A stretch of 64,000 nucleotides of DNA from a bacterium (GCA_030429765.1 JAUIER010000003.1:16402-80401); one strand, 5' to 3'. Numbered from the stretch's first letter, positions 15,240 through 42,918 are shown. Notes: generated by a model not told the origin, from the sequence alone. A program made the numbers and translations.

Positions 15240-16049
15240 ATGACAAAGACAAAGGATAGTAAGCGGCCGCATGTTGTTATGCGGCTTGTTATCGTATTAG
15301 GACTGGTGATCGGACTGGGGATGAGCTTTTGGCTGATCTGGATTGATCAGCATCGAATTGTGCCGATCGTGATGTATCATCATATAGATGAGCTGGATCA
15401 TCATGCGGTGGCCACGATACCCGCCGACCGGTTTGAAAAACATTTACAGTATCTCAAAGATCACCGATTTGATGTGCTTTCGATGGATGAACTGGTACAG
15501 GCCAAACGATCCGGACAGCGGATATCCCGAAAGACGGTCGCGTTAACTTTTGACGACGGATACGTTGACAATTATGAACAGGCGTATCCGTTGCTCAAGC
15601 GTTATGGATTTCCTGCCACGATGTTTATCAGTTCGGATCTCGTCGGAAAGCCCGGCTATATCAGCTGGGATCAGGCCCGTGAAATGCAGAATAACGGTAT
15701 CACCTTCGGCAGCCATACGCGCCGGCATATTTATTTACCGGACGCGGACCGTGAAGAGCAGTTAGACGAAATTGTGAACAGCCGCAAGATTTTGGAACGC
15801 GAGCTCGGGATGCCGGTCAAACATTTTTCATATCCCGTCGGCGGCTTTAATCACGAAATCAAGCAGATGGTTAAAGTGGCAGGATACCAAAGCGCGGTGT
15901 CGACCAATCGGGGATATGATCGATATAACGAGGACGTGTTTGAATTTAACCGCGTCACGATCGATGAGACCGACAATTTCGGTGCGATCCGCTGGGCTAA
16001 ATTTTCAGGGTATTACAATCTATTCCGCACACCCAAGAATCCAGAATAA
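15240..16049 (+). CDS. Polysaccharide deacetylase (NodB-homology / CE4) with an N-terminal TM anchor
   Basis: TFDDGYVDNYEQAYPLLKRYGFPATMFI ... GSHTRRHIYL. TM segment VVMRLVIVLGLVIGLGMSFWLIWI. Confidence 0.8.
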   Translation: MTKTKDSKRPHVVMRLVIVLGLVIGLGMSFWLIWIDQHRIVPIVMYHHIDELDHHAVATIPADRFEKHLQYLKDHRFDVLSMDELVQAKRSGQRISRKTVALTFDDGYVDNYEQAYPLLKRYGFPATMFISSDLVGKPGYISWDQAREMQNNGITFGSHTRRHIYLPDADREEQLDEIVNSRKILERELGMPVKHFSYPVGGFNHEIKQMVKVAGYQSAVSTNRGYDRYNEDVFEFNRVTIDETDNFGAIRWAKFSGYYNLFRTPKNPE

Positions 16050-16070: not shown

Positions 16071-19000
16071 ATGACAAAATCAGCAGTCAAGTACTCCATT
16101 AATAGCAACGGCTATTTCGTAATAGAAGATTATAACCGATCCAAAGTTTTCAGTAGTTTCTTTCCGGGCGTTGCCGGGCTTTGGGGGATTCCGATGTGGG
16201 TGTTTTATGTGAACAGAGGTCAGGGGATAGCCAGTTTCGGTATTCAGTCCAAGGACAAGGCGATCATGGAATTTCAGCCCGCCAACAAATCCTACCGGCT
16301 CACAACCCTTCAAGGGTTTCGCACATTTATCAAGGTCAAACAAGGACAGAAAACCACCTACTGGGAGCCCTTCCAGAATAATTTTGATGGGACAGACTTT
16401 AAGAAAAAACAGAATATGTATATATCGGCGCATGATCTGATCCTGGAAGAAGTCAATCAGGATTTGGGGTTGACGGTCCGGGTCAATTATTTCACATTGC
16501 CGGACGAGCCGTATTCCGCGCTGATGCGGCGTGTTTCCGTCGAGAATACAAGCGGTAAGAAGTGTTCTATCGAGATCCTGGACGGTATGCCGGCGATTGT
16601 GCCGTTCGGACTCAAAGATTGGCTAATCAAAAATCTGGCCCGTACGGTCGAGGCTTGGGTTAAGGTCCGTAATCTCGATGAGCGGGCGCCGTTCTATCAG
16701 CTGAATGTTGAGGTCGCGGATACGTCACAGGTCACGCACATTACGGAAGGCAATTTCTTCTTCAGCTTTGACGCCACGGCGTCGAAGAAGACTATGCTTC
16801 GGCCGATCGTCGAGGCGACGAAGATCTTCGGATCTAATCTGGATTTCAGCAGTCCCGAAAAATTTGTCAACAATACCTTCCAGCCGTCGTCCAAACAAAC
16901 GACCAACAATAAAACGCCATGCGCCTTCGCGCATCACACGTTCAGTCTGCCGGCAGGCAAGACGCATGAAATTGTTTCAGTCTTCGGTTACGCCCGGGAT
17001 GTGGATCAGCTCAAAGAGGTCCAGAAGCAGGTCGTTCAGGAAGGTTTTGTTCCGGCTAAAGAATCACAAAATCGTGAGATCATCGATGATATCAAAAACT
17101 ACGCGCAGACTAACAGCGCGTCGGAGAATTTCAATTTGTATGCCGGACATACATTTCTGGACAATATTCTACGCGGCGGTTTGCCGATTTCGGTGAGAAC
17201 GAGCGAAGGGAATATTGCCTTCAACGTATACAGCCGTAAACACGGCGATCTGGAACGCGATTATAATCATTTTGTCGTCGCGCCGACATTTTATTCTCAA
17301 GGCAACGGGAATTACCGCGATGTGAATCAGAACCGGCGGAATGATGTCTGGTTCAATGCTGACGTTAAGGAAAGTCACATCGTCAGTTTTCTTAACTTGT
17401 CACAGGCGGATGGATATAATCCATTGGTGGTGAAGGGAACGTCGTTCCGGGTCATGGAACGGAAGGACGCGGACCGGATCATTGATGAGTTTGTGGAGTC
17501 GGGCGACAAAGATCTATTGCGTGATTTTCTGATGAAGAACTTTCAGCCAGGTGAACTGCTGGTCTTCGTCGACGAGAATGACATCAAGATTCGTGAAAAC
17601 GTCCGCGTTTTTCTCGGAAGCGTTCTTGAGATCAGCCAAAAGCAGGAGATGGCGGATCACGGGGAAGGATTCTGGTCGGATCACTGGACATACAATCTGG
17701 ACTTGATTCAGAGTTATCTGTCATTGTACCCCGAGCGTCTGCGTGAACTGCTGATCGAAAACAACGAGTTCAGATTTTATCTGAATCACCATTATGTCCG
17801 GCCGCGAGATCAGCGATTTTACCTGACTGAACATGGGGTGCGTCAGTATGAATCGGTGTGTGATGACAGTAAAGACTTTGATCCGTCGAAGTTTAATTTT
17901 CGGCTCAAGACCCGCAGCGGACAAGGCGAGGAATACACCACAAACCTTTTATGCAAACTATTGTGTTTGATCGTCAATAAGGCGGCCAGTCTGGACCCCA
18001 GCGGATGCGGGGTGGAGATGGAGGCCGATAAACCCAATTGGTATGACGCGTTGAATGGCTTACCGGGTCTCGTCGGCTCGTCGGTGTCCGAGACATTTGA
18101 GCTGCAGCGATACAGTGCGTTCTTACTGGACGCCATCGATAAACTCGAGCTGAAGGACAAGGATGAGTTTCCAATCTTTGAAGAGCTGGCTTCGTTTATT
18201 ACGGGCGTCACGAATTTGTTGAGGGTCAATCATTCGGCTCTGGACTATTGGAACAAGTCCAATGATATCAAGGAAAACTATCGTCAGCGGGTCCGCCGTT
18301 TTATCGACGGGCGGGAAACCAAGATGACGGTCCATGAAATTCGCGCGTTCTTGGAGTTGGTGATCAAGAAAACCACGGAATCCTTAAAGATCGCGCGTAA
18401 CAAAAAGGGACAACTGGCCACATATTTCTATCATGAGGTTACAGACTACAAAAAAATCGAAGGTCAGCATAATGAAGAGCACACGCTGGTCCGTCCGCTG
18501 GCCTTTAAAAAGCATGCGCTGCCGTTGTTCCTCGAGGGCTATGTGCACGCCATGAAGATTCAAACCAGTGTCGCCGATGCCCGGAAGATGTACCGTGAAA
18601 TTCAAAAAAGCGATCTTTATGATGAAAAACTCAAGATGTACAAGGTGAACACAAATCTGGATTCGGAAACCGAGGAGATCGGACGCACACGGATATTCCC
18701 GTCGGGATGGCTGGAAAATGAATCGGTGTGGCTACACATGGAGTATAAGTTCATCCTTGAAATCCTGAGGGCTGAGCTGTTTGAAGAGTTTTACGACAAT
18801 TTCAAGAACGTGTTTGTACCGTTCCAAAAGCCGGCGCGTTATGGCCGAAGTATTTTAGAAAACTCATCGTTTATTGTCAGCAGCGCGCATGAGGACAAAG
18901 ATCTGCATGGACGCGGTTTTGTCGCCCGTCTGTCCGGTAGTACGGCTGAATTTCTGCATATCTGGCTGGTGATGAACGCGGGAGAGCGTCCATTTGCCTT

Positions 19001-19349
19001 GAACAAGGAGGGTGAGCTGGTACTTGAGTTTCAGCCGGCCCTGGCGAGTTGGCTGTTTACGACCAAAGCCACAACCGTTGATTTTGCAGATATTCATCAA
19101 AATCGTTATACCTGGAAACTGCCAAAAAGTTCGTACGCCTTCAAGTTTCTGAACTCCACGCTCGTGGTCTACCATAATCCCAAGCGGAAGAATACATTCG
19201 GTAAGGACAAAGCGGTAGTCCAGCGTGTTGAGATTCTGTTTGATTCGCAGGAGGCCCCGGTGGTGGTTGATGCGGCGCAGATTCCGTCACAGTACGCCCG
19301 TCAGATCCGTGATCAAAAGGCCATACGAATCGATGTTCATCTGGGCTAA
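16071..19349 (+). CDS. Large cytosolic (alpha/alpha)6-barrel glycoside hydrolase/phosphorylase-like protein (GH94/cellobiose-phosphorylase-like signature; family uncertain)
   Basis: 1092 aa with no signal peptide. It carries a PNWYDALNGLPG motif resembling the catalytic DWND(A/G)LN box of GH94 phosphorylases. Its size and predicted secondary structure also fit. Family assignment would need an HMM search. Confidence 0.35.
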   Translation: MTKSAVKYSINSNGYFVIEDYNRSKVFSSFFPGVAGLWGIPMWVFYVNRGQGIASFGIQSKDKAIMEFQPANKSYRLTTLQGFRTFIKVKQGQKTTYWEPFQNNFDGTDFKKKQNMYISAHDLILEEVNQDLGLTVRVNYFTLPDEPYSALMRRVSVENTSGKKCSIEILDGMPAIVPFGLKDWLIKNLARTVEAWVKVRNLDERAPFYQLNVEVADTSQVTHITEGNFFFSFDATASKKTMLRPIVEATKIFGSNLDFSSPEKFVNNTFQPSSKQTTNNKTPCAFAHHTFSLPAGKTHEIVSVFGYARDVDQLKEVQKQVVQEGFVPAKESQNREIIDDIKNYAQTNSASENFNLYAGHTFLDNILRGGLPISVRTSEGNIAFNVYSRKHGDLERDYNHFVVAPTFYSQGNGNYRDVNQNRRNDVWFNADVKESHIVSFLNLSQADGYNPLVVKGTSFRVMERKDADRIIDEFVESGDKDLLRDFLMKNFQPGELLVFVDENDIKIRENVRVFLGSVLEISQKQEMADHGEGFWSDHWTYNLDLIQSYLSLYPERLRELLIENNEFRFYLNHHYVRPRDQRFYLTEHGVRQYESVCDDSKDFDPSKFNFRLKTRSGQGEEYTTNLLCKLLCLIVNKAASLDPSGCGVEMEADKPNWYDALNGLPGLVGSSVSETFELQRYSAFLLDAIDKLELKDKDEFPIFEELASFITGVTNLLRVNHSALDYWNKSNDIKENYRQRVRRFIDGRETKMTVHEIRAFLELVIKKTTESLKIARNKKGQLATYFYHEVTDYKKIEGQHNEEHTLVRPLAFKKHALPLFLEGYVHAMKIQTSVADARKMYREIQKSDLYDEKLKMYKVNTNLDSETEEIGRTRIFPSGWLENESVWLHMEYKFILEILRAELFEEFYDNFKNVFVPFQKPARYGRSILENSSFIVSSAHEDKDLHGRGFVARLSGSTAEFLHIWLVMNAGERPFALNKEGELVLEFQPALASWLFTTKATTVDFADIHQNRYTWKLPKSSYAFKFLNSTLVVYHNPKRKNTFGKDKAVVQRVEILFDSQEAPVVVDAAQIPSQYARQIRDQKAIRIDVHLG

Positions 19350-19502
19350 TACCGTGTAGGTACAACGAGTTTTATGAGTTGAGCGTAAGTTGTTGTAATA
19401 TAAATAATTACAATTCATTCGGCGCTCAGCTGATCCTTCCAACGACAGCTGTATTGTTGTATACTTATAAGAGGAATATCTTCTAATATTTATACTAATA
19501 AT

Positions 19503-22500
19503 ATGCGACTGTCCCTTTTGAATATCAAACAATTCTTGCGGTCTAACGGGTTGATCCGCGGACTGGTGGCGGGTCTGATCTTAAGTCAGATTTTCTGGCC
19601 GATTTCTGTGGAGGCTCAGACTATATCCGCCCATATGCCGCGGCCCGGCGCGATGGTGGGGTTTACATCGCATCACACACCTGTGCTGATCAGGGGCGTC
19701 ATTGTCGATCCGCTGGAGCCATTCCGTTTTGATTTTCTGCTGGATACCGGGAATAATATCAGCGACCAACAGGTGCTGCAGGAAGAGTCCACCCGTCTTA
19801 TCAAATATTTTCTCGCCTCTCTCACAGTTCCGGAAGAGGACCTGTGGGTCAATCTTTCACCTTACGAAAATGAACGTATCATACCTGAATACTTCGGGGT
19901 CACCGAAATGGGACGTGATCTTTTGGCGCAGGATTATCTGCTCAAACAGCTCACCGCGACGGTGATGTATCCCGAAGAAGAATTAGGACAAAAGTTTTGG
20001 GACAAGGTGCGCACGCGCGCCTTGGTCGAGTTTGGAACGATGGATGTTCCGGTGAATTCGTTCAATAAGGTCTGGATCGTGCCTGACAAGGCCGTGATCT
20101 ATGAACAGGGTACGTCGGCGTTTATCGTGGAGGCCCGTCTGAAGGTGATGCTCGAAAAAGACTACCTGGCCTGGGATGCTAATGGCGGCACACTCGACGC
20201 GGAGTCGATGAAAGAGGCGGAGGAGCGGGAAGGCCTTGATGCCGTAACGCGAAAGATTATCCGCGAGGTGGTCATCCCGGAGATTGAATCGGAGGTCAAT
20301 GCCGGCACAAATTTTGCCGCGCTGCGTCAGATTTATCATTCGTTGATTTTGGCCAGCTGGTACAAACAAAGCATCCAGGAAAGTCTGATCAATCAACTGT
20401 ATTCGGATCAGAACAAGGTGGCCGGAGTTGATGTCGAAGACAGGAGTATCAAAGAGAAGATTTATCAGCAGTATATCGAGGCCTTCAAAGAAGGTGTTTA
20501 CGATTATATTAAGGAAGAATTTGATCCGGTGTCGCAGGAATTGATTCCGCGTAAATATTTCTCGGGTGGTATGAAGCTGGGGCTGCAGACCAGCGACATT
20601 TTAGAGCGGACCACACGTGCCGACCGTTTTCAGATTCTGGGTGATCCGCTACTCGTACAGGCGGACTTTCGTTCAACGGAGCAGTCGGTTGAATTGGGAA
20701 CGGTCGATGAAGCTATGATGGCCGATGACGGTGACGGTCCGTCGAGGACTAATGATTTCAATCGGCGCGATACAGGCTTTCAGCGGATTCGTCAGGACGT
20801 CAATCAGGTAGAGCGGGTTGAATTATCACCGGCCCAAAAGGCGGTAGCCCTGCAACGGCGGCAGCAGGAAATTTTGCGGTTGCGAGAGGCGCTGGCGCCG
20901 TACACCCAGTCGGTTGACACATTGTACTATCCCGGCATCGGTACAGATATTGAAACGGCATTACGCATTTCAAACGCCCGCCGCATCGTCGGCGTCGATA
21001 TTGATCCGTTTATCGGTGACGCACCGGATATTACGTCAGCGTTTCGTTCAGCTATAGAGGACATGGGCGGTCGAATTATTTTAGCGGAAGCGACAGGTGA
21101 GCTGAATCAGGGCGGACGGTTGAATATAGAGTTTGAGTATGATGGTGTGAGGCGGGAATTTGTGTTTTATCAAGGGGACGCGTTGTCACGGACACCTTCT
21201 ACACTGCCGGAAACACGTGACGGGTATGACATGTTTTTCGAGCAGGCTCCGTCGTTTGATCCAACACCGCAGTATACAGCCGATATTATCACCACGTTGA
21301 ATCCCAATGGTATATTTTTTGGGCGTGACACCTTTGTGGATACGCAATCCAGCCTGCAGCCCAAGATTCGTGTAGCGACACCTGCGTTGGGAAATGTTTG
21401 GGTCAAGACGGCCGAGTCAACTGCGCCTGCAAGCCCGACCGTGTGGGAGAGTTTTGTACCGCAGGGAATCAAGTCTGATCCGGCCTGGCGTCGCGACGGT
21501 ACTTATGTTGACTTCGAGAATCCGTGGATGGGAACTAATGTCAGTGCTGAGGTCCGGATCTATTTGTTTAAGAGGGCGCTTGAAGCGATTAGTATCGAAC
21601 TGCCGGAGATTCAGGATGGACTGGTCATGGGCTTCGGAGAAACCTCCAAGGAATTAGAGGAGATCAAGGACGCATTTGACATCAAGTCTGTTCGGGGAGC
21701 GGAATGGGTGGCTGATCGTGTTCGTGGTGCCGCCCGTGGGTTGCAGGAAAACAACCGCCGACCCGAAGAATTCACTCTCTACCATGAAGACATCCGTGAT
21801 CTTAACGGGGTGTTTGCCGACCGATCTTTTGATTTTATTTATGCCGGAGCTATATCAGACGACTTGCGCAATGCATCACCGCGAATCGCCCGGGAGATTG
21901 TCCGTCTGTTGCGGCTAGGCGGAATCGCTCTGTTTGACGAAAGCAATCCGGAATTTCTTCAGGTTCTATCGAATTCCAGCGGAACTCTGCACAGGTTGAG
22001 CGGCGCTGGTCATCATATATATATCGGATCCGATCAGGCGATGTTGGTCAATGCCGTCGACACAGCCGAAGACGCGTTTCGGCTGCTGCAAAATCGTGAC
22101 CGCCAGTCAGCGGATAATTTTAATATGGCCTTTAAGACGATGGCGGATGCCCGCGAATTTGTATCCAAAGGGGGTATGTTACGGTTTGTCGGTGATATCG
22201 AAAATCCGTTAGCGGTCCTCATGGCGGAGCGACGGCCGAATCCGGAATCAAACTTCATCTATATAGCAGATGTGATTACCAGTCTCGACGGGAAAAATCA
22301 GGGGCTTGGTCGGGGATTGATGCGGGATTTTGTGCGCAAATTTGGCGCGGAAAATTCGATCGGCACCAACCTGCTTTACTTCCGGGGTGATGATCAGGCC
22401 GTTGGCGGAGCGCAACGGGCATGGGAGGAATTTCATCAGGGGCTCGGCTTCAAGATACTTGGCCGTGATGACCGCTATTATTTCCGGACGCCTGGTCCAT

Positions 22501-25500
22501 TCAATCAGGCTGACTCGGCGATGCTGGCCTTAAATGATTTTTCGCGAGAATTTTTGCGACAGGTTAATGATTATCAGCGTTTAACCGAGGATCATCGTGA
22601 CATCTGGCGGGGGATTGTGAGCCGTATACAGCAGGGTGAGGAGGGGCAGGGATTCTTTAAGTTCGGAATTATCCCCAATACGCAACAACTGGATTTTTCG
22701 ACGATGGATCTCAGTGAAACGGTTGAAGGTCACGTCGATCTATTCGGGCAGGTTCGAAATGTCACAGGACGGATAGTTCGGGGTGAGTTTTATATCGAAA
22801 AAGGTAATACATTTCAGATCGCCTTGAAGCGGCCCAATAACATCATCGATCCGGAAAAAATCGCCGATTTGTATCCGGGCTTAACTATACCGGAACGGGG
22901 CGAGGCGCTGGATGAATACCTGAATGACTTGTATATCCTCGCCGCACGCATGCTGACCGGCTACAATCCGTCGACCCTCGATTTTGATGACAATGCGTTG
23001 GTCGATCCGCAGACACCGGGACGTTTGGAACGCAATGACGCGCAGTTTGAGCGTATGACCAGCATCGGGGAACTGGCTCAGCAGCCGCTGCGAATTATCC
23101 GTCTGGAGAATCCGGATGCGGTGAACTATTCCGCGTCAGAGTGGGAGCAGATCGAGGAGACGTTGAACGTTCTTGTAGACGCGGCCAATCGATACACAAC
23201 GGTCTTTACAGGAGATGTTTTTACTGAATATTTCAGCCAGATAAAAGATTGGGTGGATCGTTCGACAAGGATTACACCGGAGAATATTGACGAACTTTCG
23301 GGGGAGGCAATTGCCTTGTTGAGTGAAGTAGAGGCGATGTCAACCGAGGCGACCCGGACGGTTACGGATCAGGTTAAACGGGTACGGGATCAACTGGCGG
23401 ATGAGTATCGGAACAATCAATACACCTTTTTTAATCCGGAATCGTTGAGTCTCGTCGATGTCAAGGGATCAACCGTCGTGCACGATTTTTATAACACTTT
23501 TGGAAACATATTTCACATTGTATTTTACTTGCCGTTGACAGTGGATCCGTCATCGAGAGAAGACTTTTTTGAGGCGCAGAATAGTCTGATTGATTTTGTG
23601 ATTCGAATTGAACGGTTTCTGGAATTTTTTGATGACATTCGTGATCCGCTTCGCGTTACATCAGATTCATTGCTGACCAGTTTTTCCGAGGCGTTTCCGG
23701 AACAAACCTACCGGGATTTTCTGATCCCATTAGCCAATGCACGGCGCCGGCAAGCCAGAGAAGACCGGGCCATGTTAGCGACCGCTCGTACATCTATCGT
23801 TCAGGATCCTCAGGAGATTTCGGAAATTCTGGACGAGTGGTATGCGCAGAATCCGCAGCGGACTTTCGAGCGCGGGAAGTGGGATATCCTTTTGGGTATC
23901 GGTAACAACCTAGAGCTGATGACGGTTCGAAATCCGGATGAAAAGTTAATGGGTATTGCAGCGTTCCGTGATACGAATATCATGGTAACATTTGATGAGT
24001 TCACACCGGGATTTTCGGCCGAACTGATGGAGATAGACGAAGGCTTAAGAGGGCAAAGGCTGGGACGGTTTGTTATGAGCCAGTTAGCTCAGGAAAGTTT
24101 GTCCAGATCAGATCGTACTATGCCTGTTGTTCTCCATCCGCTGGAGGATGGCGGTGTGACCGCTGATAGCCAGCCGATGCGGCGATACTACGAGAAGATG
24201 GGATTTTATTACCTGCCGTTACCAGATGAAGCGGATCTCGAACCCGATGAAATCAGACAGAAGTATCGGCTGCAGCTGTCGGCTGAACTGGCCAATCGCT
24301 TGCAGGAAAGTATCGATGAGCTGATCCAACGCGGTCAAGCCACCGACTCCGCGATGTTAGGGGATGTGAATTGGGAGATAAATGACATTCTCCAGGACCG
24401 GGAAACACTTGATATATATCGGATCGTGGGAATAACAGGGGCTAAGGATGCGCGGGAATCGAGGATTGTCATTGAAAAGATAATCGGCGGGCGCCGTGAA
24501 GCGGTTTTGGTGTCAGAAGCCGAAAGGCGATTCCGATCGGACAAAAACTATAATGAGAGTGACTTCTATCAGATTCCGGAAGCCGATCGGCAGGAATTAG
24601 CTCGCCGAGGTTTTGAGGATATCGAGGTGATTTCCGGGGGAGTCCAGTTTCAATTTGCGGACAGGCAGGTTGACAACAAGACAGTATTTGCGGCCCGTGA
24701 CTCGAATAATGAGCGAGATGTGGTGGTTATAGTGCATAAGGATAGTTTGGAAGTCGCGGAGTTCTATGAGGAATGGAATCAGCCCGGATCAGGCATCATG
24801 GCGATCTATGAAAGCGGAACGTTTACCGATGGTAGTAATTATATGATCGCTGAGCGATTCGAGGGAACGACAATTGAAGATCTAAGCTGGGGGCAGGACG
24901 AAGGTTTTCCGGTCTCACAAATGGTTCGTTCGATTCTGGAATTCGTCGGAAATCTAAGTGAATTTCATGAACGGAATTTCTTTCATGGTGATTTGTCTCC
25001 CGGAAACTTTATCGTGAGCGATGAAGGGCGTGTCACCGCGATTGATCTCAGTAAGGCCTATCAGAACATGTACTATGACCTGGAAGATGTTGATTTAGCC
25101 GATATCCCGGATGAGTGGATACAGCGGCAGCAGGCCGATGATATTGCGTCGACGGGACAGGCCCTGTTGAACTTGGTTACGGGTAACAATGAAGGCTTTG
25201 ACTACGTATATGGCTCGCAGCAGGATCTGTCGGCGTTATTGAGATCGATGACAGATAAAAAGGTCGACTTAAACGCCATTGAGCTGAACATTTTGAGTAC
25301 GATCATCTACAAGATGCTCAATGCCGGTATCGTGGCACTAAATTCTGACAGCGACGCTATTCAGCGGATAGGTGATGATTACTATCGAACGATGGGCGAG
25401 GCGCGGGAGGATTTGCTCAACCTGCAGGCCATTCTCGACGCGGCGATGCTGGCCGATGGAGAAGACGCCGAGACCGGGGGTATCGACTTGACACCAGACA

Positions 25501-25736
25501 AGCTCAATCTGGAGATTCAGCGCGACGACGCGTCGGGTGTTCCCGCGGGCGTGATACCGTTGCCGTCCAGCGATGTGCAGATAGAGGGATTGTATCCGGT
25601 CATCATCAACATCCTGCCGGTCAGTAATCTGCCGGTGCTCTTGGGAACCGCTGAACAGGATGATCCGACGGAAGTGGGATGGCTTGAGTTTGATGTGTTT
25701 GATCAATCACTTGATCTGGTGCGAAAACCGGAATAG
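19503..25736 (+). CDS. Giant secreted multidomain protein (2077 aa): signal peptide, two class-I SAM-methyltransferase-like regions, two GNAT acetyltransferase-like regions, and a protein-kinase-like region
   Basis: Signal peptide MRLSLLNIKQFLRSNGLIRGLVAGLILSQIFWPISVEA. Methyltransferase-like: YYPGIGTDIETALRISNARRIVGVDIDP and FDFIYAGAISDDLRNASPRIAREIVRLLRLGGIALF. GNAT-like: NQGLGRGLMRDFVRKFG...QGLGFK and LRGQRLGRFVMSQLAQ...YYEKMGFYY. Kinase-like: VVVIVHKD ... FFHGDLSPGNFIV ... VTAIDLSKAY. Confidence 0.5.
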   Translation: MRLSLLNIKQFLRSNGLIRGLVAGLILSQIFWPISVEAQTISAHMPRPGAMVGFTSHHTPVLIRGVIVDPLEPFRFDFLLDTGNNISDQQVLQEESTRLIKYFLASLTVPEEDLWVNLSPYENERIIPEYFGVTEMGRDLLAQDYLLKQLTATVMYPEEELGQKFWDKVRTRALVEFGTMDVPVNSFNKVWIVPDKAVIYEQGTSAFIVEARLKVMLEKDYLAWDANGGTLDAESMKEAEEREGLDAVTRKIIREVVIPEIESEVNAGTNFAALRQIYHSLILASWYKQSIQESLINQLYSDQNKVAGVDVEDRSIKEKIYQQYIEAFKEGVYDYIKEEFDPVSQELIPRKYFSGGMKLGLQTSDILERTTRADRFQILGDPLLVQADFRSTEQSVELGTVDEAMMADDGDGPSRTNDFNRRDTGFQRIRQDVNQVERVELSPAQKAVALQRRQQEILRLREALAPYTQSVDTLYYPGIGTDIETALRISNARRIVGVDIDPFIGDAPDITSAFRSAIEDMGGRIILAEATGELNQGGRLNIEFEYDGVRREFVFYQGDALSRTPSTLPETRDGYDMFFEQAPSFDPTPQYTADIITTLNPNGIFFGRDTFVDTQSSLQPKIRVATPALGNVWVKTAESTAPASPTVWESFVPQGIKSDPAWRRDGTYVDFENPWMGTNVSAEVRIYLFKRALEAISIELPEIQDGLVMGFGETSKELEEIKDAFDIKSVRGAEWVADRVRGAARGLQENNRRPEEFTLYHEDIRDLNGVFADRSFDFIYAGAISDDLRNASPRIAREIVRLLRLGGIALFDESNPEFLQVLSNSSGTLHRLSGAGHHIYIGSDQAMLVNAVDTAEDAFRLLQNRDRQSADNFNMAFKTMADAREFVSKGGMLRFVGDIENPLAVLMAERRPNPESNFIYIADVITSLDGKNQGLGRGLMRDFVRKFGAENSIGTNLLYFRGDDQAVGGAQRAWEEFHQGLGFKILGRDDRYYFRTPGPFNQADSAMLALNDFSREFLRQVNDYQRLTEDHRDIWRGIVSRIQQGEEGQGFFKFGIIPNTQQLDFSTMDLSETVEGHVDLFGQVRNVTGRIVRGEFYIEKGNTFQIALKRPNNIIDPEKIADLYPGLTIPERGEALDEYLNDLYILAARMLTGYNPSTLDFDDNALVDPQTPGRLERNDAQFERMTSIGELAQQPLRIIRLENPDAVNYSASEWEQIEETLNVLVDAANRYTTVFTGDVFTEYFSQIKDWVDRSTRITPENIDELSGEAIALLSEVEAMSTEATRTVTDQVKRVRDQLADEYRNNQYTFFNPESLSLVDVKGSTVVHDFYNTFGNIFHIVFYLPLTVDPSSREDFFEAQNSLIDFVIRIERFLEFFDDIRDPLRVTSDSLLTSFSEAFPEQTYRDFLIPLANARRRQAREDRAMLATARTSIVQDPQEISEILDEWYAQNPQRTFERGKWDILLGIGNNLELMTVRNPDEKLMGIAAFRDTNIMVTFDEFTPGFSAELMEIDEGLRGQRLGRFVMSQLAQESLSRSDRTMPVVLHPLEDGGVTADSQPMRRYYEKMGFYYLPLPDEADLEPDEIRQKYRLQLSAELANRLQESIDELIQRGQATDSAMLGDVNWEINDILQDRETLDIYRIVGITGAKDARESRIVIEKIIGGRREAVLVSEAERRFRSDKNYNESDFYQIPEADRQELARRGFEDIEVISGGVQFQFADRQVDNKTVFAARDSNNERDVVVIVHKDSLEVAEFYEEWNQPGSGIMAIYESGTFTDGSNYMIAERFEGTTIEDLSWGQDEGFPVSQMVRSILEFVGNLSEFHERNFFHGDLSPGNFIVSDEGRVTAIDLSKAYQNMYYDLEDVDLADIPDEWIQRQQADDIASTGQALLNLVTGNNEGFDYVYGSQQDLSALLRSMTDKKVDLNAIELNILSTIIYKMLNAGIVALNSDSDAIQRIGDDYYRTMGEAREDLLNLQAILDAAMLADGEDAETGGIDLTPDKLNLEIQRDDASGVPAGVIPLPSSDVQIEGLYPVIINILPVSNLPVLLGTAEQDDPTEVGWLEFDVFDQSLDLVRKPE

Positions 25737-25869: not shown

Positions 25870-26865
25870 ATGTCAAATAGTGAAATTACCGAAATTAACG
25901 AGCGTGTTCAAAAATCCAGCCAGTTTGTTGAGGCGATTTATACCGAAGCGCAAAAGGTTATGGTTGGCCAGAAGTACCTGTTGGAACGGTTGATGCTGGG
26001 GTTGCTGGCCAATGGTCATATTCTGCTGGAAGGTGTGCCAGGCCTGGCCAAGACAACGGCTGTTAAGACTTTGTCGAGTACTATTCATACAAAATTCCAA
26101 CGGTTGCAGTTTACGCCGGATATGTTACCGGCCGATTTGACCGGGACGTTAATTTATGATCAGAAAAGCGGGGATTTTAAGGTCAAGAAAGGACCGATCT
26201 TCGCCAATATTATTCTGGCTGACGAGATTAACCGCGCGCCGGCCAAGGTGCAGAGCGCGTTACTGGAGGCGATGCAGGAGCGGCAGGTTACGATCGGGTC
26301 CGATACGTTGGGGCTCGAAGATCCGTTCCTGGTGTTGGCCACACAGAATCCGATTGAGCAGGAAGGGACTTATCCGTTACCGGAAGCGCAGGTCGATCGA
26401 TTTATGCTCAAGCTCAAGATTGATTATCCCACCAAGGAAGAAGAACATCAGATCCTGAAACGCATGGCCCATACCAAGAACAAGATCGAGATCAAACCGA
26501 TCATTCATCCCGAAGATCTGCTGGAGGCGCGGAAGATCGTCGACGAGATCTACATGGATGAAAAGATTGAACACTACATTGTCAATATCGTTGACTCGAC
26601 ACGCAATCCTGATCAGTACAACCTTAGTGACATCAAGGGATTACTTCAGTACGGGGCATCGCCGCGGGCGACGATCAATCTGGCGATCGCTTCCAAGGCC
26701 CACGCCTTTCTTCAAGGCCGCGGGTATGTCACGCCTCAAGATGTGAAGTCGATCGGAATGGATGTCCTTCGCCATCGTATTCTGATCAGTTATGAAGCCG
26801 AAGCCGAAGAAAAAACATCAGAAGATATTATCCAACGGATTTTTGACGAGATAGAAGTACCTTAG
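25870..26865 (+). CDS. moxR: MoxR-family AAA+ ATPase (first gene of the Bat-like operon)
   Basis: Walker A GVPGLAKT. ILADEINRAPAKVQSALLEAMQERQVTIG. The C-terminal half is MoxR-typical. Confidence 0.9.
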   Translation: MSNSEITEINERVQKSSQFVEAIYTEAQKVMVGQKYLLERLMLGLLANGHILLEGVPGLAKTTAVKTLSSTIHTKFQRLQFTPDMLPADLTGTLIYDQKSGDFKVKKGPIFANIILADEINRAPAKVQSALLEAMQERQVTIGSDTLGLEDPFLVLATQNPIEQEGTYPLPEAQVDRFMLKLKIDYPTKEEEHQILKRMAHTKNKIEIKPIIHPEDLLEARKIVDEIYMDEKIEHYIVNIVDSTRNPDQYNLSDIKGLLQYGASPRATINLAIASKAHAFLQGRGYVTPQDVKSIGMDVLRHRILISYEAEAEEKTSEDIIQRIFDEIEVP

Positions 26866-27036
26866 TCTGAAACGAGTGATCAGTGATCGGTAACGCGAGT
26901 ATTGCTGGATACCAAGTTCAGGGGCGGTAGGACAAAGGGCTGATATATCAGCGTGTCCTGCCAAGATGAGTCAACCATCCGGGTGTCGCGTGTCACATCA
27001 CCGGTCTCTCTCCCAAAAAACTGTAAGTCATTCATC

Positions 27037-27948
27037 ATGATACCCAAAGACCTGTTTAAGAAAATCAAACAGATTGAAATCACCACCTCCAGGCTGGTGA
27101 CGGATGTATTTGCCGGCCAGTATCACAGTGTATTCAAGGGGCAGGGGATTGAGTTTGATGAGGTGCGTGAGTATCAGATGGGCGATGATATCCGCAGCAT
27201 TGACTGGAATGTGACCGCGCGGACCGGCAAACCGCATGTAAAGAAATTTATCGAGGAGCGGGAGCTGACCGTAATGATCCTCGTCGATGTGTCGGCCTCG
27301 GCCATGTTTGGATCAACACACGAGATCAAGAGCCAGCTGGCGGCGGAGATGTCGGCGCTGTTGGCCTTATCAGCGATCCGTAATAATGATAAAGTCGGAT
27401 TGATCATCTTTACGGATGAGGTTGAGAAGTTTATTCCGCCGCGCAAGGGGCGAGGTCATGTGCTTCGACTGATCCGTGAGGTTTTGTATTTTGTTCCCCA
27501 GGGCAAACACACCAATATAACCAATGCGTTGGAATTTTTGAGCCGGGTGACCTCCCGCAAAACAATATCATTCTTGATTTCAGACTTTCTGGGGCATAAT
27601 TTGGACCGTCCGGACGGCGATCCGGATGAGACATTCAAGAAAGTCTTGTCGATTGCGAATCAGCGTCATGATTTGATCGCGATCACCATGAATGATCCCA
27701 ATGAACAGCGTCTTCCCAAGAGCGGTATCCTGCTGCTGGAGGACGCGGAGACCGGTGAGCTGGTCTATGTCGATTCGAACAGCTCAACCGTGCGCGACCG
27801 ATATGAAAAAAATAACGCCCGGCGAATCGCCAAGCGTGAACAATTATTCCGCTCGCTGGGAATCGATCATATGGATGTGTCGACCGATTCGTCGTATGCC
27901 GACGAGGTGGTTAAATTTTTCCGTCAACGGATACGTAAGCAGCGTTAA
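27037..27948 (+). CDS. DUF58 protein (vWA-like partner of MoxR)
   Basis: DDIRSIDWNVTARTGKPHVKKFIEERELTVMILVDVSASMFGS. ATG 27037 was chosen over the listed 26953. Confidence 0.85.
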   Translation: MIPKDLFKKIKQIEITTSRLVTDVFAGQYHSVFKGQGIEFDEVREYQMGDDIRSIDWNVTARTGKPHVKKFIEERELTVMILVDVSASAMFGSTHEIKSQLAAEMSALLALSAIRNNDKVGLIIFTDEVEKFIPPRKGRGHVLRLIREVLYFVPQGKHTNITNALEFLSRVTSRKTISFLISDFLGHNLDRPDGDPDETFKKVLSIANQRHDLIAITMNDPNEQRLPKSGILLLEDAETGELVYVDSNSSTVRDRYEKNNARRIAKREQLFRSLGIDHMDVSTDSSYADEVVKFFRQRIRKQR

Positions 27949-28541
27949 TGCCGGTTATGAAACATTTTTGTAAACACACAATTTGGATGGGCTGGGTATG
28001 TCTGCTTCCTAGTCTTGTCAATGCTCAGGAGGAGGGCGGATTGCGTGACATCCGCGGGCCGGTGGAATATCCGTCGTTTCCGTGGGGATCTTTTATCACC
28101 ACGCTGGTGCTCTTGTTGCTGATCGGCGGCGGATTATACTTTTATCTCGAGCGTAAGCGACGCCTCAAGGCCAAGTCCCAAGTCGCCAAGTTGCCGTGGC
28201 AGATTGCTCAGGAAAAAATCAAGGCCTTGCTGGCTTCAGACTTGTTGTCGAGCAAACAGTACGAAACATTCTACGCGCGGTTATCAGATGTCTTACGCGA
28301 ATATATCGAAAATCGTTTTGGAATCCGCGCGGTTGAGATGACGACGGACGAATTCCTGACATCTCTAAAGGACAATCAGTCTCTCGCTGACAATCACAAG
28401 CGTCTGCTGAAGCAGTTTCTCGAATATGCGGATATGGTGAAGTTTGCTAAATTCACGCCGAATCAGAAAGATGTCGAAGAAGGTTATGAAGCGGCCCGTA
28501 AGTTTATCACTCAGACGCAGCGTCGATCCGGAGGGGCGTAA
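27948..28541 (+). CDS. DUF4381-like single-pass membrane protein of the Bat operon
   Basis: Signal/TM region plus ITTLVLLLLIGGGLYFYLERKRRLK, followed by a helical domain. The position between the DUF58 and vWA genes fits this family. Confidence 0.6.
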   Translation: MPVMKHFCKHTIWMGWVCLLPSLVNAQEEGGLRDIRGPVEYPSFPWGSFITTLVLLLLIGGGLYFYLERKRRLKAKSQVAKLPWQIAQEKIKALLASDLLSSKQYETFYARLSDVLREYIENRFGIRAVEMTTDEFLTSLKDNQSLADNHKRLLKQFLEYADMVKFAKFTPNQKDVEEGYEAARKFITQTQRRSGGA

Positions 28542-29533
28542 TGGTATTTAAAACACCGTGGATACTCGCGTTGATCCCCATCGTGCTGGCCGGGATCTGG
28601 TGGATGCGCCGGGACAGAAAACCGACGACATTTCGTTTTTCCTCCCAGCAGCTGGTGGGAGGTGTCGGGAGTTCATTGCGTACGCGTTTACTGCCGTTGC
28701 CGACGATCCTTCGTTACATGGTGCTGACCTTGTTTATCTTTGCCCTGGCCGGACCCAGATTTGTGTCCGAGGAGACGGTCCGCAAAACGCAGGGGATTGA
28801 CATTGTGTTGACCATCGACGCATCGGGCAGTATGGCGGCCGAAGATTTTAATATCGGTGACAAACGTGTGAATCGTCTCACGATAGTCAAAGAGGTGGTG
28901 GCCGAATTTATTGAACAGCGGGACAGTGACCGTATCGGATTGATTACCTTTGCCGCGTTGGCCTACACCGTGACACCGCTGACGACCGACTATTCGTGGC
29001 TGCTGGAGAATCTCAAACGCGTTCGGTTAGGGATGATCCAGGATGGAACAGCGATTGGTTCGGCGATTATGTCATCGGTGGCCCGCTTAAAGGACAGTGA
29101 CGCGAAAAGTAAGGTGGCGATTCTGCTGACGGACGGAGTCAACAACGGTCGTGAGGTCGATCCGATTGAAGCCGCGCGCGTGGCCAAGTCATTCGGGGTA
29201 AAGATTTACACTATCGGTGCCGGCACGTCGGGCTATGTGCCGTTTCCGATGCGGGCGTTCGGCCGTCAGATTTATCGCGACGTCAAGATCGATCTTGATG
29301 AAGATGTGCTGAAGGAAGTCGCATATATCACCGGCGGCAAGTATTTTCGGGCGATGGATGCGGCCAAGTTGAGAGCGATCTATGATGAAATCGATCAGCT
29401 TGAAAAAACGGAAGTCGAAGAGCTTGGCTATTTCGAATACACCGAATTATTTGGATGGTTTCTCGGAGCGGGTATGATTTTGCTGTTGCTGGAGATCCTT
29501 TTGAAAAATACTTGGCTGCTGAGGGTTCCCTAA
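28541..29533 (+). CDS. batA: BatA-like vWA-domain membrane protein
   Basis: N-terminal TM region. vWA MIDAS motif: IDIVLTIDASGSMAAEDF ... LLTDGVNNG. C-terminal TM segment. Confidence 0.8.
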   Translation: MVFKTPWILALIPIVLAGIWWMRRDRKPTTFRFSSQQLVGGVGSSLRTRLLPLPTILRYMVLTLFIFALAGPRFVSEETVRKTQGIDIVLTIDASGSMAAEDFNIGDKRVNRLTIVKEVVAEFIEQRDSDRIGLITFAALAYTVTPLTTDYSWLLENLKRVRLGMIQDGTAIGSAIMSSVARLKDSDAKSKVAILLTDGVNNGREVDPIEAARVAKSFGVKIYTIGAGTSGYVPFPMRAFGRQIYRDVKIDLDEDVLKEVAYITGGKYFRAMDAAKLRAIYDEIDQLEKTEVEELGYFEYTELFGWFLGAGMILLLLEILLKNTWLLRVP

Positions 29534-29534
29534 A

Positions 29535-30548
29535 ATGCAATTTGAACAATCGTGGATGCTGAATTTGTTGTGGGCCGTATTGTTGCTGGTCGGATTCTTA
29601 CGCTGGGCAGCGGTCTATAGGGAAGGTGTGATCCGGAAGTTCGTCGACCAGAAGCTTGTCGACAAAGTTGTCATCAACGCCGGGCGCGGAGTGCAATTGT
29701 ATCGTCACATACTGATCGTTGGCGTCTTCGTCTTTGCCATCCTGGCGTTAAGCCGCCCGCAATGGGGATTTGAGTGGCAGGAGGTCAAACGTAAGGCCAT
29801 CGATATCATTGTGGTGATCGATACATCCAAAAGTATGCTGACACAGGATGTCAAACCCAATCGTCTGGAACGCACTAAGTTGGCCGTTAAGGATCTGCTT
29901 AAGAAATTGCGCGGGGATCGAATCGGGCTGATCGCGTTTTCCGGTGAGGCATTCCTGATGTGTCCTTTAACCAGTGATTATAATGGATTTGTACTCAGCC
30001 TCAATGATCTCGACGTGGACTCGGTGCCGCGCGGCGGAACGAATCTGGAGCGGGCCCTGCAGGTCGGACTGGAAAGTTTTGATGAGACGAACAGTCAGTA
30101 CAAAACGATTATTGTTGTCACCGATGGCGACAATCTCGAGGGGGACCCGACCGCGGTGGCCAGACGGGCGCGCGAGGAAGGGGTTAAGATCTATGCGATC
30201 GGCATCGGAACACGCGAAGGAGAGCTGATTCAGATATCAGATGCCGGCGATGCCCCCACGTTTCTCAAGGACTCCGAAGGTAATTTCGTGAAGTCACGTT
30301 TAAATGAGGCGCTGCTTAAGCAAATTTCGCTGATTACCGAAGGTGCCTACGTCAAGGCCAGCGGCGCGCAATTTGGACTGGACCTGATATACGAGCGTGA
30401 TCTATCGAAACTCGAGAAGCGAGAGCTGCAAACCCGGATGCAGAAAAAGTATTTTGACCGGTTTCAATGGCCGTTAACGGTCGCGTTAATCCTGTTGGTG
30501 ATGGAATCATGTTTACCCCGACGAAAAAAACAACTTGTGCAGTCTTAG
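29535..30548 (+). CDS. batB: BatB-like vWA-domain membrane protein
   Basis: IDIIVVIDTSKSMLTQDVKPNRLERTKLAVKDLL ... VVTDGDNLEGDP. N- and C-terminal TM segments. Confidence 0.8.
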   Translation: MQFEQSWMLNLLWAVLLLVGFLRWAAVYREGVIRKFVDQKLVDKVVINAGRGVQLYRHILIVGVFVFAILALSRPQWGFEWQEVKRKAIDIIVVIDTSKSMLTQDVKPNRLERTKLAVKDLLKKLRGDRIGLIAFSGEAFLMCPLTSDYNGFVLSLNDLDVDSVPRGGTNLERALQVGLESFDETNSQYKTIIVVTDGDNLEGDPTAVARRAREEGVKIYAIGIGTREGELIQISDAGDAPTFLKDSEGNFVKSRLNEALLKQISLITEGAYVKASGAQFGLDLIYERDLSKLEKRELQTRMQKKYFDRFQWPLTVALILLVMESCLPRRKKQLVQS

Positions 30549-31702
30549 GTTGGCTTGCGGCCAGCTCGTGTATGGTGACGACGGTCTCGGCCGATAATGT
30601 GGCCAAGCAGACCCGTACGGGCAACCGTCTGTACGAGGCGGACGACTTTGCCGGAGCGCTGGAAAAATACAAGCAGGCCTTAAAAATTAATCCGGAATCT
30701 GGTATCATTAATTTCAATGTCGGAAGTGCGTACTATAAGGCCGGTGAGTATGAATCGGCCGTTGAGCATCTGCAGCGGTCCGTGCTGACCGATGATGATC
30801 AGCTGCGGCAGCGGGCGCATTATAATTTGGGCAATGCGCGCTATCAGTACGGTCGGGGTTTCGTGCAGAAAGACAAGCCAAAAGCCATTGAGCAGTACGA
30901 GCAAGCGATTCGTGAATACGACAAGGTTATAGTCGCCCGGCCGGATGATGAGGATGCGTTGCACAATCGAAAGATCGTCCAGGATGAGCTGGACCGTTTG
31001 AAGCAGGAACAGGCCAGTCAGCCCAACCAGCAGAGTCAGCAAAGTCAGGACGATCAGAACAAAGATTCTCAGTCTGATAATCAGGATCAAAACAACGATC
31101 AGTCAAATCAGTCCGACCAGAACGATGATTCCTCACAGCAGGATCAGTCCGACGACTCGAATCAGGACGAAAATCAGGAAGATCAGTCGGACTCGGAGAA
31201 TCAGCCGGACGATTCCCAGGATCAGCCGGATGATTCGCAAGATCAGCCGCAGAATCAGGATCAATCTGATGAGTCGGAGGATGATTCACAATCTGATCAC
31301 TCGTCGACGGATGATCAGGAGGAACAGAATAATTCTGATGAATCTCAGTCGGATCAGCAAAACAATCAGCAAGATCAGTCGGATAATTCGCAGGGACAGG
31401 ATTCTCCGCAGGATCAGTCTTCGGATTCTCAACAGGACCAAGAGCAGGACGGACAGGGTGATCGGGAGCAGCCGCAGGATGGTCAGGAAAATCAGCCGTC
31501 CGATCAGAACGACAATCAACAGCCGCCCGATTCTCAGGGCGATGGGCGTTCCGGTATGTCACCGCAGCCGGTGGATATCAGTGATTTGACGGCCGGGGAG
31601 GCCGAGATGATGCTGAGAAATTATCAGCAATCGATTGAACCCACGGAGTTATTGAATTTTAATCCGCCAAGCCGGGGCGTTCCGGTATTGAAGGATTGGT
31701 AA
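30509..31702 (+). CDS. batC: BatC-like TPR protein carrying a ~190-aa acidic D/Q/S/N-rich low-complexity region
   Basis: TPR units (YEADDFAGALEKYKQALKINPESG ..., VGSAYYKAGEYESAVEHLQRSV) are followed by QQSQQSQDDQNKDSQSDNQDQNNDQSNQSDQNDDSSQQDQSDDSNQDENQEDQSDSENQPDDSQDQPDDSQDQPQNQDQSDESEDD.... The start could be ATG 30509 (which keeps a signal peptide and overlaps batB) or ATG 30572. Confidence 0.7.
   Translation: MFTPTKKTTCAVLGWLAASSCMVTTVSADNVAKQTRTGNRLYEADDFAGALEKYKQALKINPESGIINFNVGSAYYKAGEYESAVEHLQRSVLTDDDQLRQRAHYNLGNARYQYGRGFVQKDKPKAIEQYEQAIREYDKVIVARPDDEDALHNRKIVQDELDRLKQEQASQPNQQSQQSQDDQNKDSQSDNQDQNNDQSNQSDQNDDSSQQDQSDDSNQDENQEDQSDSENQPDDSQDQPDDSQDQPQNQDQSDESEDDSQSDHSSTDDQEEQNNSDESQSDQQNNQQDQSDNSQGQDSPQDQSSDSQQDQEQDGQGDREQPQDGQENQPSDQNDNQQPPDSQGDGRSGMSPQPVDISDLTAGEAEMMLRNYQQSIEPTELLNFNPPSRGVPVLKDW
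31000..31560 (+). repeat. Low-complexity coding DNA (imperfect gatcag/cagtc/gacgat repeats) encoding the acidic D/Q/S/N tract of BatC
   Basis: Visible nucleotide-level near-repeats, e.g. ggacgattcccaggatcagccggatgattcgcaagatcagccg. They create spurious ORFs on both strands (30927..31562 -, 31125..31589 +, 31286..31519 -). Confidence 0.7.
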
Positions 31703-31706
31703 GCCG

Positions 31707-42461: not shown

Positions 42462-42534
42462 GAGCCTCTAGCTCATCCGGTAGAGCATCTCCCTTTTAAG
42501 GAGAGGGTGGCGCGTTCGAGTCGCGCGAGGCTCA
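42462..42534 (+). tRNA. tRNA-Lys (anticodon TTT)
   Basis: Cloverleaf checked by hand. The 7-bp acceptor stem gagcctc/gaggctc pairs perfectly. Anticodon loop cttttaa. T-loop ttcgagt. Discriminator A. Confidence 0.85.
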
Positions 42535-42589
42535 CTCTTGTTCCTCCGGCTCAGACCTGAGATAGTCCGAGTCGGAGGAAAACATTTTT

Positions 42590-42671
42590 GCCCCGCTGGT
42601 GGAATTGGTAGACACGCTAGTCTTAGGAACTAGTGCCGCAAGGCGTGGGGGTTCAAGTCCCTCGCGGGGCA
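42590..42671 (+). tRNA. tRNA-Leu (anticodon TAG), type II with a long variable arm
   Basis: Acceptor stem gccccgc/gcggggc. Anticodon stem-loop ctagt-cttagga-actag. Variable arm tgccgcaaggcgt. T-loop ttcaagt. Confidence 0.85.
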
Positions 42672-42757
42672 TTTTATGAAGTCCTATCCGGATCATTATT
42701 TCAGAATTTATAGCAGCACGGACGTCACGTCCGGAGCTTTTATACAATCACAATTTT

Positions 42758-42831: not shown

Positions 42832-42918
42832 CCATTTTACAAAACAACCATCTTATACAGACCTAGATCAACCGGGTTTGCTTGGAACGCAGCTTGCGGC
42901 CAATTTGGAGGAATATAT

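Follow-up and report, generated by a model that had tools for sequence, protein, structure and literature searches.

What could a single bacterial protein that begins with a predicted Sec-type signal peptide do with methyl-, acetyl- and phosphoryl-transfer domains in one chain? The question is raised by a 64,000-nucleotide (nt) stretch of bacterial DNA (GCA_030429765.1, JAUIER010000003.1:16402-80401), here called the window, in which one uninterrupted open reading frame (ORF) at 19503..25736 on the + strand runs from an ATG start and encodes a product of 2077 amino acids (aa), referred to below as the query. The first-pass annotation, made from the DNA alone, had recognised this ORF and described it as a singular fusion of methyltransferase-, GNAT- and kinase-like segments between an N-region of ~400 aa and a C-terminal tail, both left unassigned. 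The gene it singled out is real and unusual and roughly half of the domain assignments were right; the annotation mistook variable cargo for the defining feature. The methyltransferase-GNAT-kinase combination is not singular; the query is, with near certainty, one member of a large and mechanistically unexplained family with a head-cargo-tail architecture. The members share a Sec-type leader, an N-terminal module (N-module) of ~330 aa, a variable set of complete enzyme or regulatory domains, a C-terminal module (C-module) of ~60 aa and a short acidic tail.

Of 8,000 candidates examined in a homolog search with the query, 3,086 reached E<=1e-3, and the homologs listed cover just 15-23% of it at 46-66% identity, yet bear unrelated Pfam cargo. 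The domains carried by relatives include those of glycolytic type (phosphoglucomutase, glucose-6-P isomerase, PGK, triose-P isomerase, enolase and GAPDH), and others include UTP-glucose-1-P uridylyltransferase, isocitrate lyase, malate synthase, M48 peptidase with ABC1, Nudix and PRTase, as well as response-regulator receivers, GGDEF, HEAT repeats, HTH, DnaJ, methyltransferases, GNATs, kinases and radical SAM domains. What is shared lies at the two ends: aa 26-375 are common to all 119 non-self homologs and aa 1976-2050 to 108 of them, with little in common between. The two regions that had been left unassigned are therefore the hallmark modules of a family whose catalytic middle varies, and thousands of Omnitrophota proteins combine this head and tail with wholly different cargo. 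When a profile built from 30 N-modules (A1) was searched against 1.84 billion cluster representatives (50% identity), it matched 8,265 of them at E<=1e-3 and 6,623 at E<=1e-30, always at target residues ~35-370, giving a family of at least 8,265 clusters; the query itself matches over residues 42-368 (E=2.2e-161, 552.8 bits). By a hidden Markov model (HMM) of the C-module, 190 of 227 N-module proteins have a single copy of it, placed at the very C-terminus with a median of 20 aa behind it, and the members that lack it are mostly short and probably truncated, two being annotated as partial. Complete members range from 731 aa, with one cargo domain, to 5,312 aa (median 1,900). Members consisting of head and tail only were considered and rejected, as the short matches have no C-module and look truncated. 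A word-indexed search for the C-module outside N-module proteins returned short contig-end fragments only and was uninformative.

The family is nearly restricted to metagenome-assembled genomes (MAGs) labelled as Omnitrophota. Scanning species-representative genomes yielded 580 loci, several paralogs occurring per MAG, and 79 of the loci were kept. Most of these lie in MAGs labelled Candidatus Omnitrophota/Omnitrophica or the Omnitrophota genus Ca. Aceula; ~25 are in third-party-assembled MAGs labelled 'uncultured Planctomycetales', one in a 'Planctomycetales bacterium' and one in Ca. Elulimicrobium. The Planctomycetales-labelled loci, the Ca. Elulimicrobium sp. locus (L068, DYOU01000064.1) and one protein labelled 'Deltaproteobacteria bacterium' (P0312) may reflect mislabelling, misbinning or a wider distribution. 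At least six paralogs occur in genome OFTM38 and at least five in SMAG_U7936, and ~19 flanking ORFs cluster with the family, which suggests that tandem paralogs are common. Apart from these tandem paralogs, no neighbour family recurs at the 79 loci. A second N-module subfamily, 25-33% identical to the main one, was found through the IMG/VR contig IMGVR_UViG_3300035208_003134 (L084 4791-7481), where an 896-aa protein is laid out as head / RASSPIG / radical-SAM / RASSPVD / GGIDLG tail. Its relatives (P0244-P0339) are Omnitrophota MAG proteins with variable cargo, and the same large contigs carry the main subfamily. Only 4 of 2.9 million IMG/VR contigs carry a relative.

Neither module has a match in Pfam-A or NCBIfam, or in the PDB by profile search, and the family is apparently undescribed, unmodelled in Pfam/NCBIfam and without a structural relative found. 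The C-module, proline-rich and ~60 aa long, has the consensus GGIDLNP..L.LQIKRDG.G.PLP...QP....I.GF.PVIINITPVTNLPLLLG and the signature GGIDL...PVIIN..P...LP.LLG, of which the PVIIN..LLLG stretch is moderately hydrophobic and rich in Pro and Asn. AlphaFold2 models it with no secondary structure (pTM 0.22), and it may be an extended peptide that acquires a fold only when a partner binds. The model of the N-module is of mixed alpha/beta type and is poor for its most conserved stretch and for the WVNLSPYE..QDYLLKQ region. Identity of the C-module with the C-terminal domain of type IX secretion system (T9SS) cargo was rejected, given that the C-terminal 96 aa have no Pfam hit and the model no beta-sandwich, and so was a link to Por_Secre_tail (PF18962), whose matches in P0092 and P0105 fall inside the cargo. 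In 20 of 227 proteins the sequence that follows the C-module and its acidic spacer closes with L-N-COOH (EVSYLN, EISALN, EISWLN; for example P0016, P0019, P0023, P0027, P0046 and P0055) and many others have [LI]-S-[YF] near the end; these endings may form an additional C-terminal signal.

The leader of the query has, by inspection, a basic n-region (R2, K9, R13, R19), an h-region GLVAGLILSQIFWPISV and then V-E-A|Q. Leaders in 199 complete N-termini are 44 aa long at the median and carry a median n-region charge of +3, and 165 of them contain an [AVSTG]-x-A-Q site. The features expected of a Sec-type signal peptide, as first annotated, are therefore present, and its cleavage is predicted. The long n-region often includes a conserved aromatic-basic pair before the hydrophobic core (LSYRIL, LTYRFL, FAYRVL), a trait reminiscent of the extended signal peptides that very large secreted proteins of other bacteria carry. 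Hydropathy reveals no hydrophobic segment between leader and C-module in the query, nor in most members.

Cargo cassettes differ even between syntenic orthologs. The ortholog P0002, of 2349 aa, comes from the independent sample SRR23272297 and lies in the same neighbourhood as the query (DsbH-like, AsmA, PilZ, YgjP, YqeY, deacetylase, a 1093-aa ORF, the ortholog and then MoxR/Bat). It has the same head, methyltransferase, GNAT, kinase and tail; with segments named as in Table 1, S1b is 46% identical to its residues 643-848 and S4 39% identical to residues 1668-1858. In place of S1a it carries an unrelated S3b-like domain, the GNAT-like S2 is absent, ~400 extra residues are present, and S3a/S3b-like domains stand in the opposite order and in a different copy number. 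The homology blocks begin and end at the sites of a short peptide motif that punctuates the cargo, which shows cassette-wise evolution inside fixed handles.

This punctuation recurs throughout the query, where all six AM[LM] tripeptides, against ~0.5 expected from a rough composition estimate, stand as D/E-x-A-M-L/M and mark where the N-module ends, where one cargo segment gives way to the next and where the C-module starts. Motif statistics were computed across 120 relatives. D.AML was observed 94 times against 2.8 expected (33-fold) and D.AMM 23 times against 0.7, and in an unbiased count of 4-mers in the cargo regions the top-ranked were SSPV (71 against 1.9, 37-fold), ASSP, SSPI and SSSP, together with DAAM. 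The query's genome has the motif as D-x-A-M-[LMV], other genomes as S-S-P-[VIL]. The two forms nearly exclude each other within a protein: D-x-A-M alone is present in 51, S-S-P-[VIL] alone in 30, both in 8 and neither in 31. The choice follows the genome, with D-x-A-M in 5/5 DATDQB and 3/3 JABDGZ paralogs and S-S-P in 2/2 CAYIQK paralogs. Among the proteins with neither dialect no convincing third shared motif was found, only a weak D-[SA]-A-x-L. Sites are spaced by a median of 244 aa, the residue directly after D-x-A-M-L is mostly small (A/S/T/G), and in relatives with glycolytic-type and UDPGP cargo the sites closely bracket the Pfam domains (Table 1). Codons vary freely, both at the query's six sites and at 39 from other loci (GAT/GAC, GCT/GCG/GCC, TTG/CTG/TTA, and Ser TCN for AGY), which implies selection on the peptide and not on the DNA and rules out a role as recombination joint, RNA signal or internal start. 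Since they are selected as peptides, specific to the genome and placed precisely at domain flanks, the motifs are candidate processing sites.

As for the catalytic segments of the query, the methyl-, acetyl- and phosphoryl-transfer reading is partly supported, and survives in reduced form as one methyltransferase, one GNAT and one kinase-like domain with profile matches. Of the two methyltransferase segments claimed, the second holds, as S1b matches Methyltransf_11 (PF08241, CL0063) at aa ~732-811 above the Pfam cutoff (26.0-27.6 bits against 21.2, E=4.6e-6). The first does not: S1a has no Pfam match at E<=1 and no PDB match to any methyltransferase, and its motif-I-like YYPGIGTD and VGVDIDP are visible by eye only. 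The two GNAT claims are less clear-cut. S4 matches Acetyltransf_1 (PF00583) at aa 1463-1568, scoring 24.0 bits when the whole protein is scanned, above the cutoff of 20.7, and 20.1 bits, just below it, when the segment is taken alone, and its motif A is imperfect (RGQRLGRF); S2 (aa 849-1006) reaches only E=0.058 for Acetyltransf_1 and has no significant PDB match, yet its Q-x-x-G-x-G is perfect (QGLGRG). The protein/lipid-kinase-like call is sustained by an ABC1/protein-kinase-like match at aa 1778-1848 (25.7-29.7 bits, cutoff 22.9; Pkinase E=1.9e-4), and in alignments with PknB, p38 and CK1 the HGDLSPGN of S5 falls on the catalytic loop HRD..N, and the Asp in its IDLS on that of DFG. The beta3 (VAIK) Lys is ambiguous, as PknB K40 aligns to the Ile of VVVIV and a Lys stands two residues on (VHKD). 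For S3 (aa 1009-1423) the Pfam and PDB searches gave no significant match.

Conserved termini around variable cargo are the signature of secretion-substrate families such as MARTX toxins, the two-partner secretion (TPS) proteins including CdiA, and T9SS cargo, and by this analogy the terminal modules may be read as secretion-substrate-like handles. The query would then be a modular carrier protein, with a leader, handles and punctuated cargo, that is exported, processed and delivered, a composite reading for and against which we find the balance about even. Its parts differ in strength. The leader would take the chain across the cytoplasmic membrane by Sec export, a step that its sequence makes on the whole probable. 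The invariant N- and C-modules would be the handles by which machinery encoded at other loci of the genome traffics, docks or anchors the chain. Punctuation motifs would be recognition sites, most likely endoproteolytic, for a factor that co-evolves with each genome, and the chain would behave as a polyprotein; such proteolytic processing is possible, falling somewhat short of probable. Cargo appears functional, with a PGI of 630 bits over its full length and an intact kinase catalytic loop, and the activities delivered by the query would comprise a methyltransferase dependent on S-adenosylmethionine (SAM), one or two GNATs, a kinase-like phosphotransferase, along with two domains of unknown function. 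Their place of action would lie beyond the cytoplasm of the producer, and because family cargo needs SAM, acetyl-CoA and ATP (also NAD or DNA), the most plausible site would be within a host or prey cell, in its cytoplasm, or at a feeding junction with that cell. A host-dependent or predatory lifestyle has been proposed for Omnitrophota and fits action in another cell (PMC10066038). Action of the cargo inside a host cell is nonetheless a tentative proposal, rather unlikely at present; the 'giant effector' that the first-pass annotation offered as an alternative comes close to the carrier reading preferred here. Delivery to other cells, if true, would mean an unprecedented effector repertoire of glycolytic and other housekeeping enzymes. 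An equally speculative generalisation is a phylum-specific export and delivery platform in which head and tail route housekeeping-type enzymes out of the cell and a co-evolving endopeptidase cuts at D-x-A-M or S-S-P, the enzymes then being released inside host or prey cells or into a metabolic compartment outside the cytoplasm; if this is true, central-metabolism enzymes would be exported wholesale as effectors, by machinery with no relation to known secretion-substrate signals.

Several points weigh against the carrier reading. Radical SAM, HTH, DnaJ and glycolytic cargo are hard to reconcile with unfolded Sec export or with extracytoplasmic activity. No protease domain is universal to the family, and no accessory neighbour gene is conserved in the 79 loci. 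About a quarter of the relatives (31 of 120) have neither motif, both AlphaFold2 models are of only moderate confidence, and export, cleavage and delivery are alike inferred from sequence. In addition, the model places the last D-A-A-M-L inside a helix, at the helix end, and S-S-P-[VIL]-x-[ED] resembles a helix N-cap, so that the motifs could be structural linkers.

These last two observations favour the rival that survives best, in which the protein is an uncleaved multi-enzyme scaffold exported by its leader and tethered to the surface or membrane, its modules serving as anchors that might bind one another head-to-tail and so form an enzyme-studded coat, and its motifs as linker caps. The unstructured model of the C-module and the poorly modelled conserved stretch of the N-module would fit folding induced by a partner, and surface 'coat' and attachment roles have been proposed for giant Omnitrophota proteins (PMC10066038; bioRxiv 10.64898/2026.06.07.730766). 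A structural cap would not be expected to be enriched 33- to 37-fold, to switch by genome, or to hold Ser-Ser-Pro across Ser codon boxes, and enzymes dependent on ATP, SAM and acetyl-CoA would be without substrates at the surface. A scaffold of this kind is accordingly considered unlikely, with a chance of perhaps one in a few.

That all of the cargo is of cytoplasmic type would fit a polyprotein that is held in the inner membrane by an uncleaved hydrophobic anchor and faces the producer's own cytoplasm as a tethered metabolon or regulatory hub, and Nielsen & Lui consider such a topology for long proteins with transmembrane segments and no signal peptide (bioRxiv 10.64898/2026.06.07.730766). 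Here the hydrophobic segment is preceded by the positive charges and, in 165/199 members, followed by small-x-A|Q, which together predict an N-in/C-out topology and cleavage; the query, like most members, also has no later hydrophobic segment that could return the chain to the cytoplasm. A cytoplasm-facing polyprotein is thus quite improbable.

Slightly more improbable still is the function first suggested for this gene, a periplasmic or surface machine modifying glycans or proteins together with the genes beside it. The adjacency is real. A polysaccharide deacetylase is present as annotated, and immediately 5' of the gene lies a 1092-aa ORF, the large glycosidase/phosphorylase-like neighbour, whose sole match is a weak N-terminal one to the NCBIfam family GH149 (beta-1,3-glucan phosphorylase), at 133 bits where the cutoff is 1150, with none found in Pfam. 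All three genes are on the same strand with short gaps, and the order is kept at P0002; the syntenic locus L080 has a 1093-aa counterpart of the ORF in the same position. Conservation of the neighbourhood at P0002 is explained by ordinary synteny, however, and a functional tie to these neighbours is unsupported at the family level, as none of the 79 loci shares a neighbour family other than tandem paralogs. The cargo differs between the two syntenic orthologs, and it is well established that SAM, acetyl-CoA and ATP are absent from the periplasm. Downstream, the gene is followed directly by a complete and standard MoxR/Bat operon, an arrangement also present in L080, and upstream it is parted from the 1092-aa ORF by an AT-rich gap (33% GC against ~49% in the DNA on either side). 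Of the promoter-like region claimed here, the length and AT-richness stand and the promoter does not, sigma-70-like sites being no commoner than in shuffled sequence.

Finally, an assembly chimera or gene-calling artefact joining separate genes, which a metagenome-derived contig and a large protein of heterogeneous domains might suggest and which the first-pass annotation had named as one possible refutation, is virtually ruled out by an identical protein on record in NCBI and Logan (254,838-bp contig), by the ortholog P0002 with its motif-bounded blocks in an independent sample, and by a head-cargo-tail layout common to thousands of relatives.

Positions in the window and in the relatives cited for motif placement are collected in Table 1. 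Nearly all ORFs of at least 200 aa in the window (1-64000) are on the + strand and the GC skew is positive in every 2-kb bin, which suggests a long co-oriented stretch within one replichore.

Table 1. Features of the window (nucleotide positions) and, below them, cargo domains of relatives (amino acid positions) with the motif sites that flank them.
Feature	Position	Strand	Remarks
1076-aa ORF	158-3388	+	no Pfam match; neither N- nor C-module
1419-aa ORF	3422-7681	+	TPR the only match; neither N- nor C-module
Polysaccharide deacetylase	15240-16049	+	PF01522, 8e-32
1092-aa ORF	16071-19349	+	weak GH149 match
AT-rich intergenic region	19350..19502	+	153 nt, 33% GC; one weak sigma-70-like site 19379-19408
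Long Sec-type signal peptide, aa 1-38	19503..19616	+	predicted cleavage after V-E-A, before Q39; inspection and family statistics
Family-defining N-module	19617..20705	+	core aa ~39-358, ends RKYFSGG; lineage-specific extension to aa 401
Punctuation motif 1, D-E-A-M-M, aa 402-406	20706..20720	+	
Cargo S1a, aa 407-640	20721..21422	+	called methyltransferase-like earlier; no Pfam or PDB match
Cargo S1b, aa 641-843, class-I SAM methyltransferase domain	21423..22031	+	Methyltransf_11
Punctuation motif 2, D-Q-A-M-L, aa 844-848	22032..22046	+	
Cargo S2, aa 849-1003, GNAT-like by motif QGLGRG	22047..22511	+	below profile significance
Punctuation motif 3, D-S-A-M-L, aa 1004-1008	22512..22526	+	
Cargo S3, aa 1009-1420, two ~200-aa domains S3a and S3b	22527..23762	+	sub-threshold PIN_5 match only
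Punctuation motif 4, D-R-A-M-L, aa 1421-1425	23763..23777	+	
Cargo S4, aa 1426-1614, GNAT acetyltransferase domain	23778..24344	+	Acetyltransf_1
Punctuation motif 5, D-S-A-M-L, aa 1615-1619	24345..24359	+	
Cargo S5, aa 1620-1978, protein-kinase-like (ABC1/ePK/APH-type)	24360..25436	+	intact HGD..N loop, DFG-type Asp
Punctuation motif 6, D-A-A-M-L, aa 1979-1983	25437..25451	+	
C-module core, aa 1992-2048, GGIDLTPDKLNLEIQRD...GLYPVIINILPVSNLPVLLG	25476..25646	+	homolog alignments, HMM
Acidic, aromatic-containing C-terminal tail, aa 2049-2077, and stop codon	25647..25736	+	
MoxR(AAA_3)-DUF58-DUF4381-BatA-BatB-TPR-BatD operon	25870-33524	+	complete
Three clustered tRNA genes, Lys-TTT, Leu-TAG, Gly-GCC	42462-42834	+	
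P0087 UDPGP	654-957		flanking motif sites 426 / 1070
P0087 PGI	1178-1402		flanking motif sites 1095 / 1705
P0087 PGM	1728-2130		flanking motif sites 1705 / 2257
P0087 PGK	2470-2920		flanking motif sites 2279 / 2945
P0024 PGI	840-1330		flanking motif sites 782 / 1369
P0023 PGK	1099-1505		flanking motif sites 1085 / 1642
P0019 PGK	from 1957		flanking motif sites 1937 / 2447

Among known systems, the long and giant proteins of Omnitrophota are the closest described. West-Roberts et al. (2023) describe signal-peptide-bearing long or giant proteins of a 'multi-enzyme metabolic cluster' and state that information on cleavage points is lacking (bioRxiv 10.1101/2023.11.21.568195). Nielsen & Lui (2026) report that methyltransferase, GNAT, HATPase, HAD and sugar-metabolism domains co-occur in proteins of at least 10 thousand aa, that methyltransferase, GNAT and kinase/ATPase form a recurrent module in long Omnitrophota proteins, and that 94% carry a signal peptide or transmembrane helices, posing the same topology paradox (bioRxiv 10.64898/2026.06.07.730766). 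The giants share with the query family the phylum, a Pfam repertoire (PF08241, PF00583, kinases/ATPases, PGM, starch synthase, response regulators and radical SAM), cytoplasm-type enzymes behind a signal peptide and an open question of cleavage. They differ in size, at 10-20 thousand aa or more against 2 thousand for the query, in being classed by Pfam content, and in having mostly many transmembrane helices, whereas between leader and C-module the query has no stretch that hydropathy marks as a transmembrane candidate. No description of the N-module, the C-module or the inter-domain motifs was found in the full-text literature searched, which included the available parts of both preprints.

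Omnitrophota are ubiquitous, uncultivated and mostly host-dependent nanobacteria, and whether their long multi-enzyme proteins are exported and cut, and where they act, is an acknowledged puzzle. The motif sites offer concrete and testable candidates for the 'cleavage points' missing from the giant-gene literature, and the two invariant handles of this tractable family, on the scale of 2 thousand aa, may be the signature of a new trafficking system.

Viral polyproteins resemble the query in having several enzymes per chain with a short lineage-specific motif between them, and differ in that the query is a cellular chromosomal gene in an ordinary bacterial context, with no protease domain recognised in the chain. 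TPS proteins such as CdiA begin with an extended Sec signal followed by a conserved N-proximal domain, and in T9SS a conserved C-terminal domain of ~60-80 aa marks the cargo; both would be comparable to the present family as large proteins with variable passengers that follow the logic of a terminal trafficking domain. In contrast to TPS, the query N-module is modelled as mixed alpha/beta and not as a beta-helix, and has no Pfam match; in contrast to T9SS, the C-module has neither a Pfam match nor a PF18962-type beta-sandwich.

In the MARTX toxins of Vibrio and its relatives, conserved N- and C-terminal regions bracket interchangeable effector domains whose content varies by strain, and the effectors are freed by cuts at short inter-domain sites, at a Leu followed by a small residue. 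MARTX toxins use type I secretion and have no Sec leader, unlike the query, the cargo of which consists of housekeeping-type enzymes and not toxins. Neither RTX repeats nor a cysteine protease domain gave a Pfam or NCBIfam match in the query or its segments, and as its modules also match no TPS domain or T9SS C-terminal domain, the query lies outside the MARTX, TPS and T9SS families. By working logic, MARTX toxins would nevertheless be the nearest analogue, with conserved ends around a mosaic middle and small residues that here, too, predominate after D-x-A-M-L.

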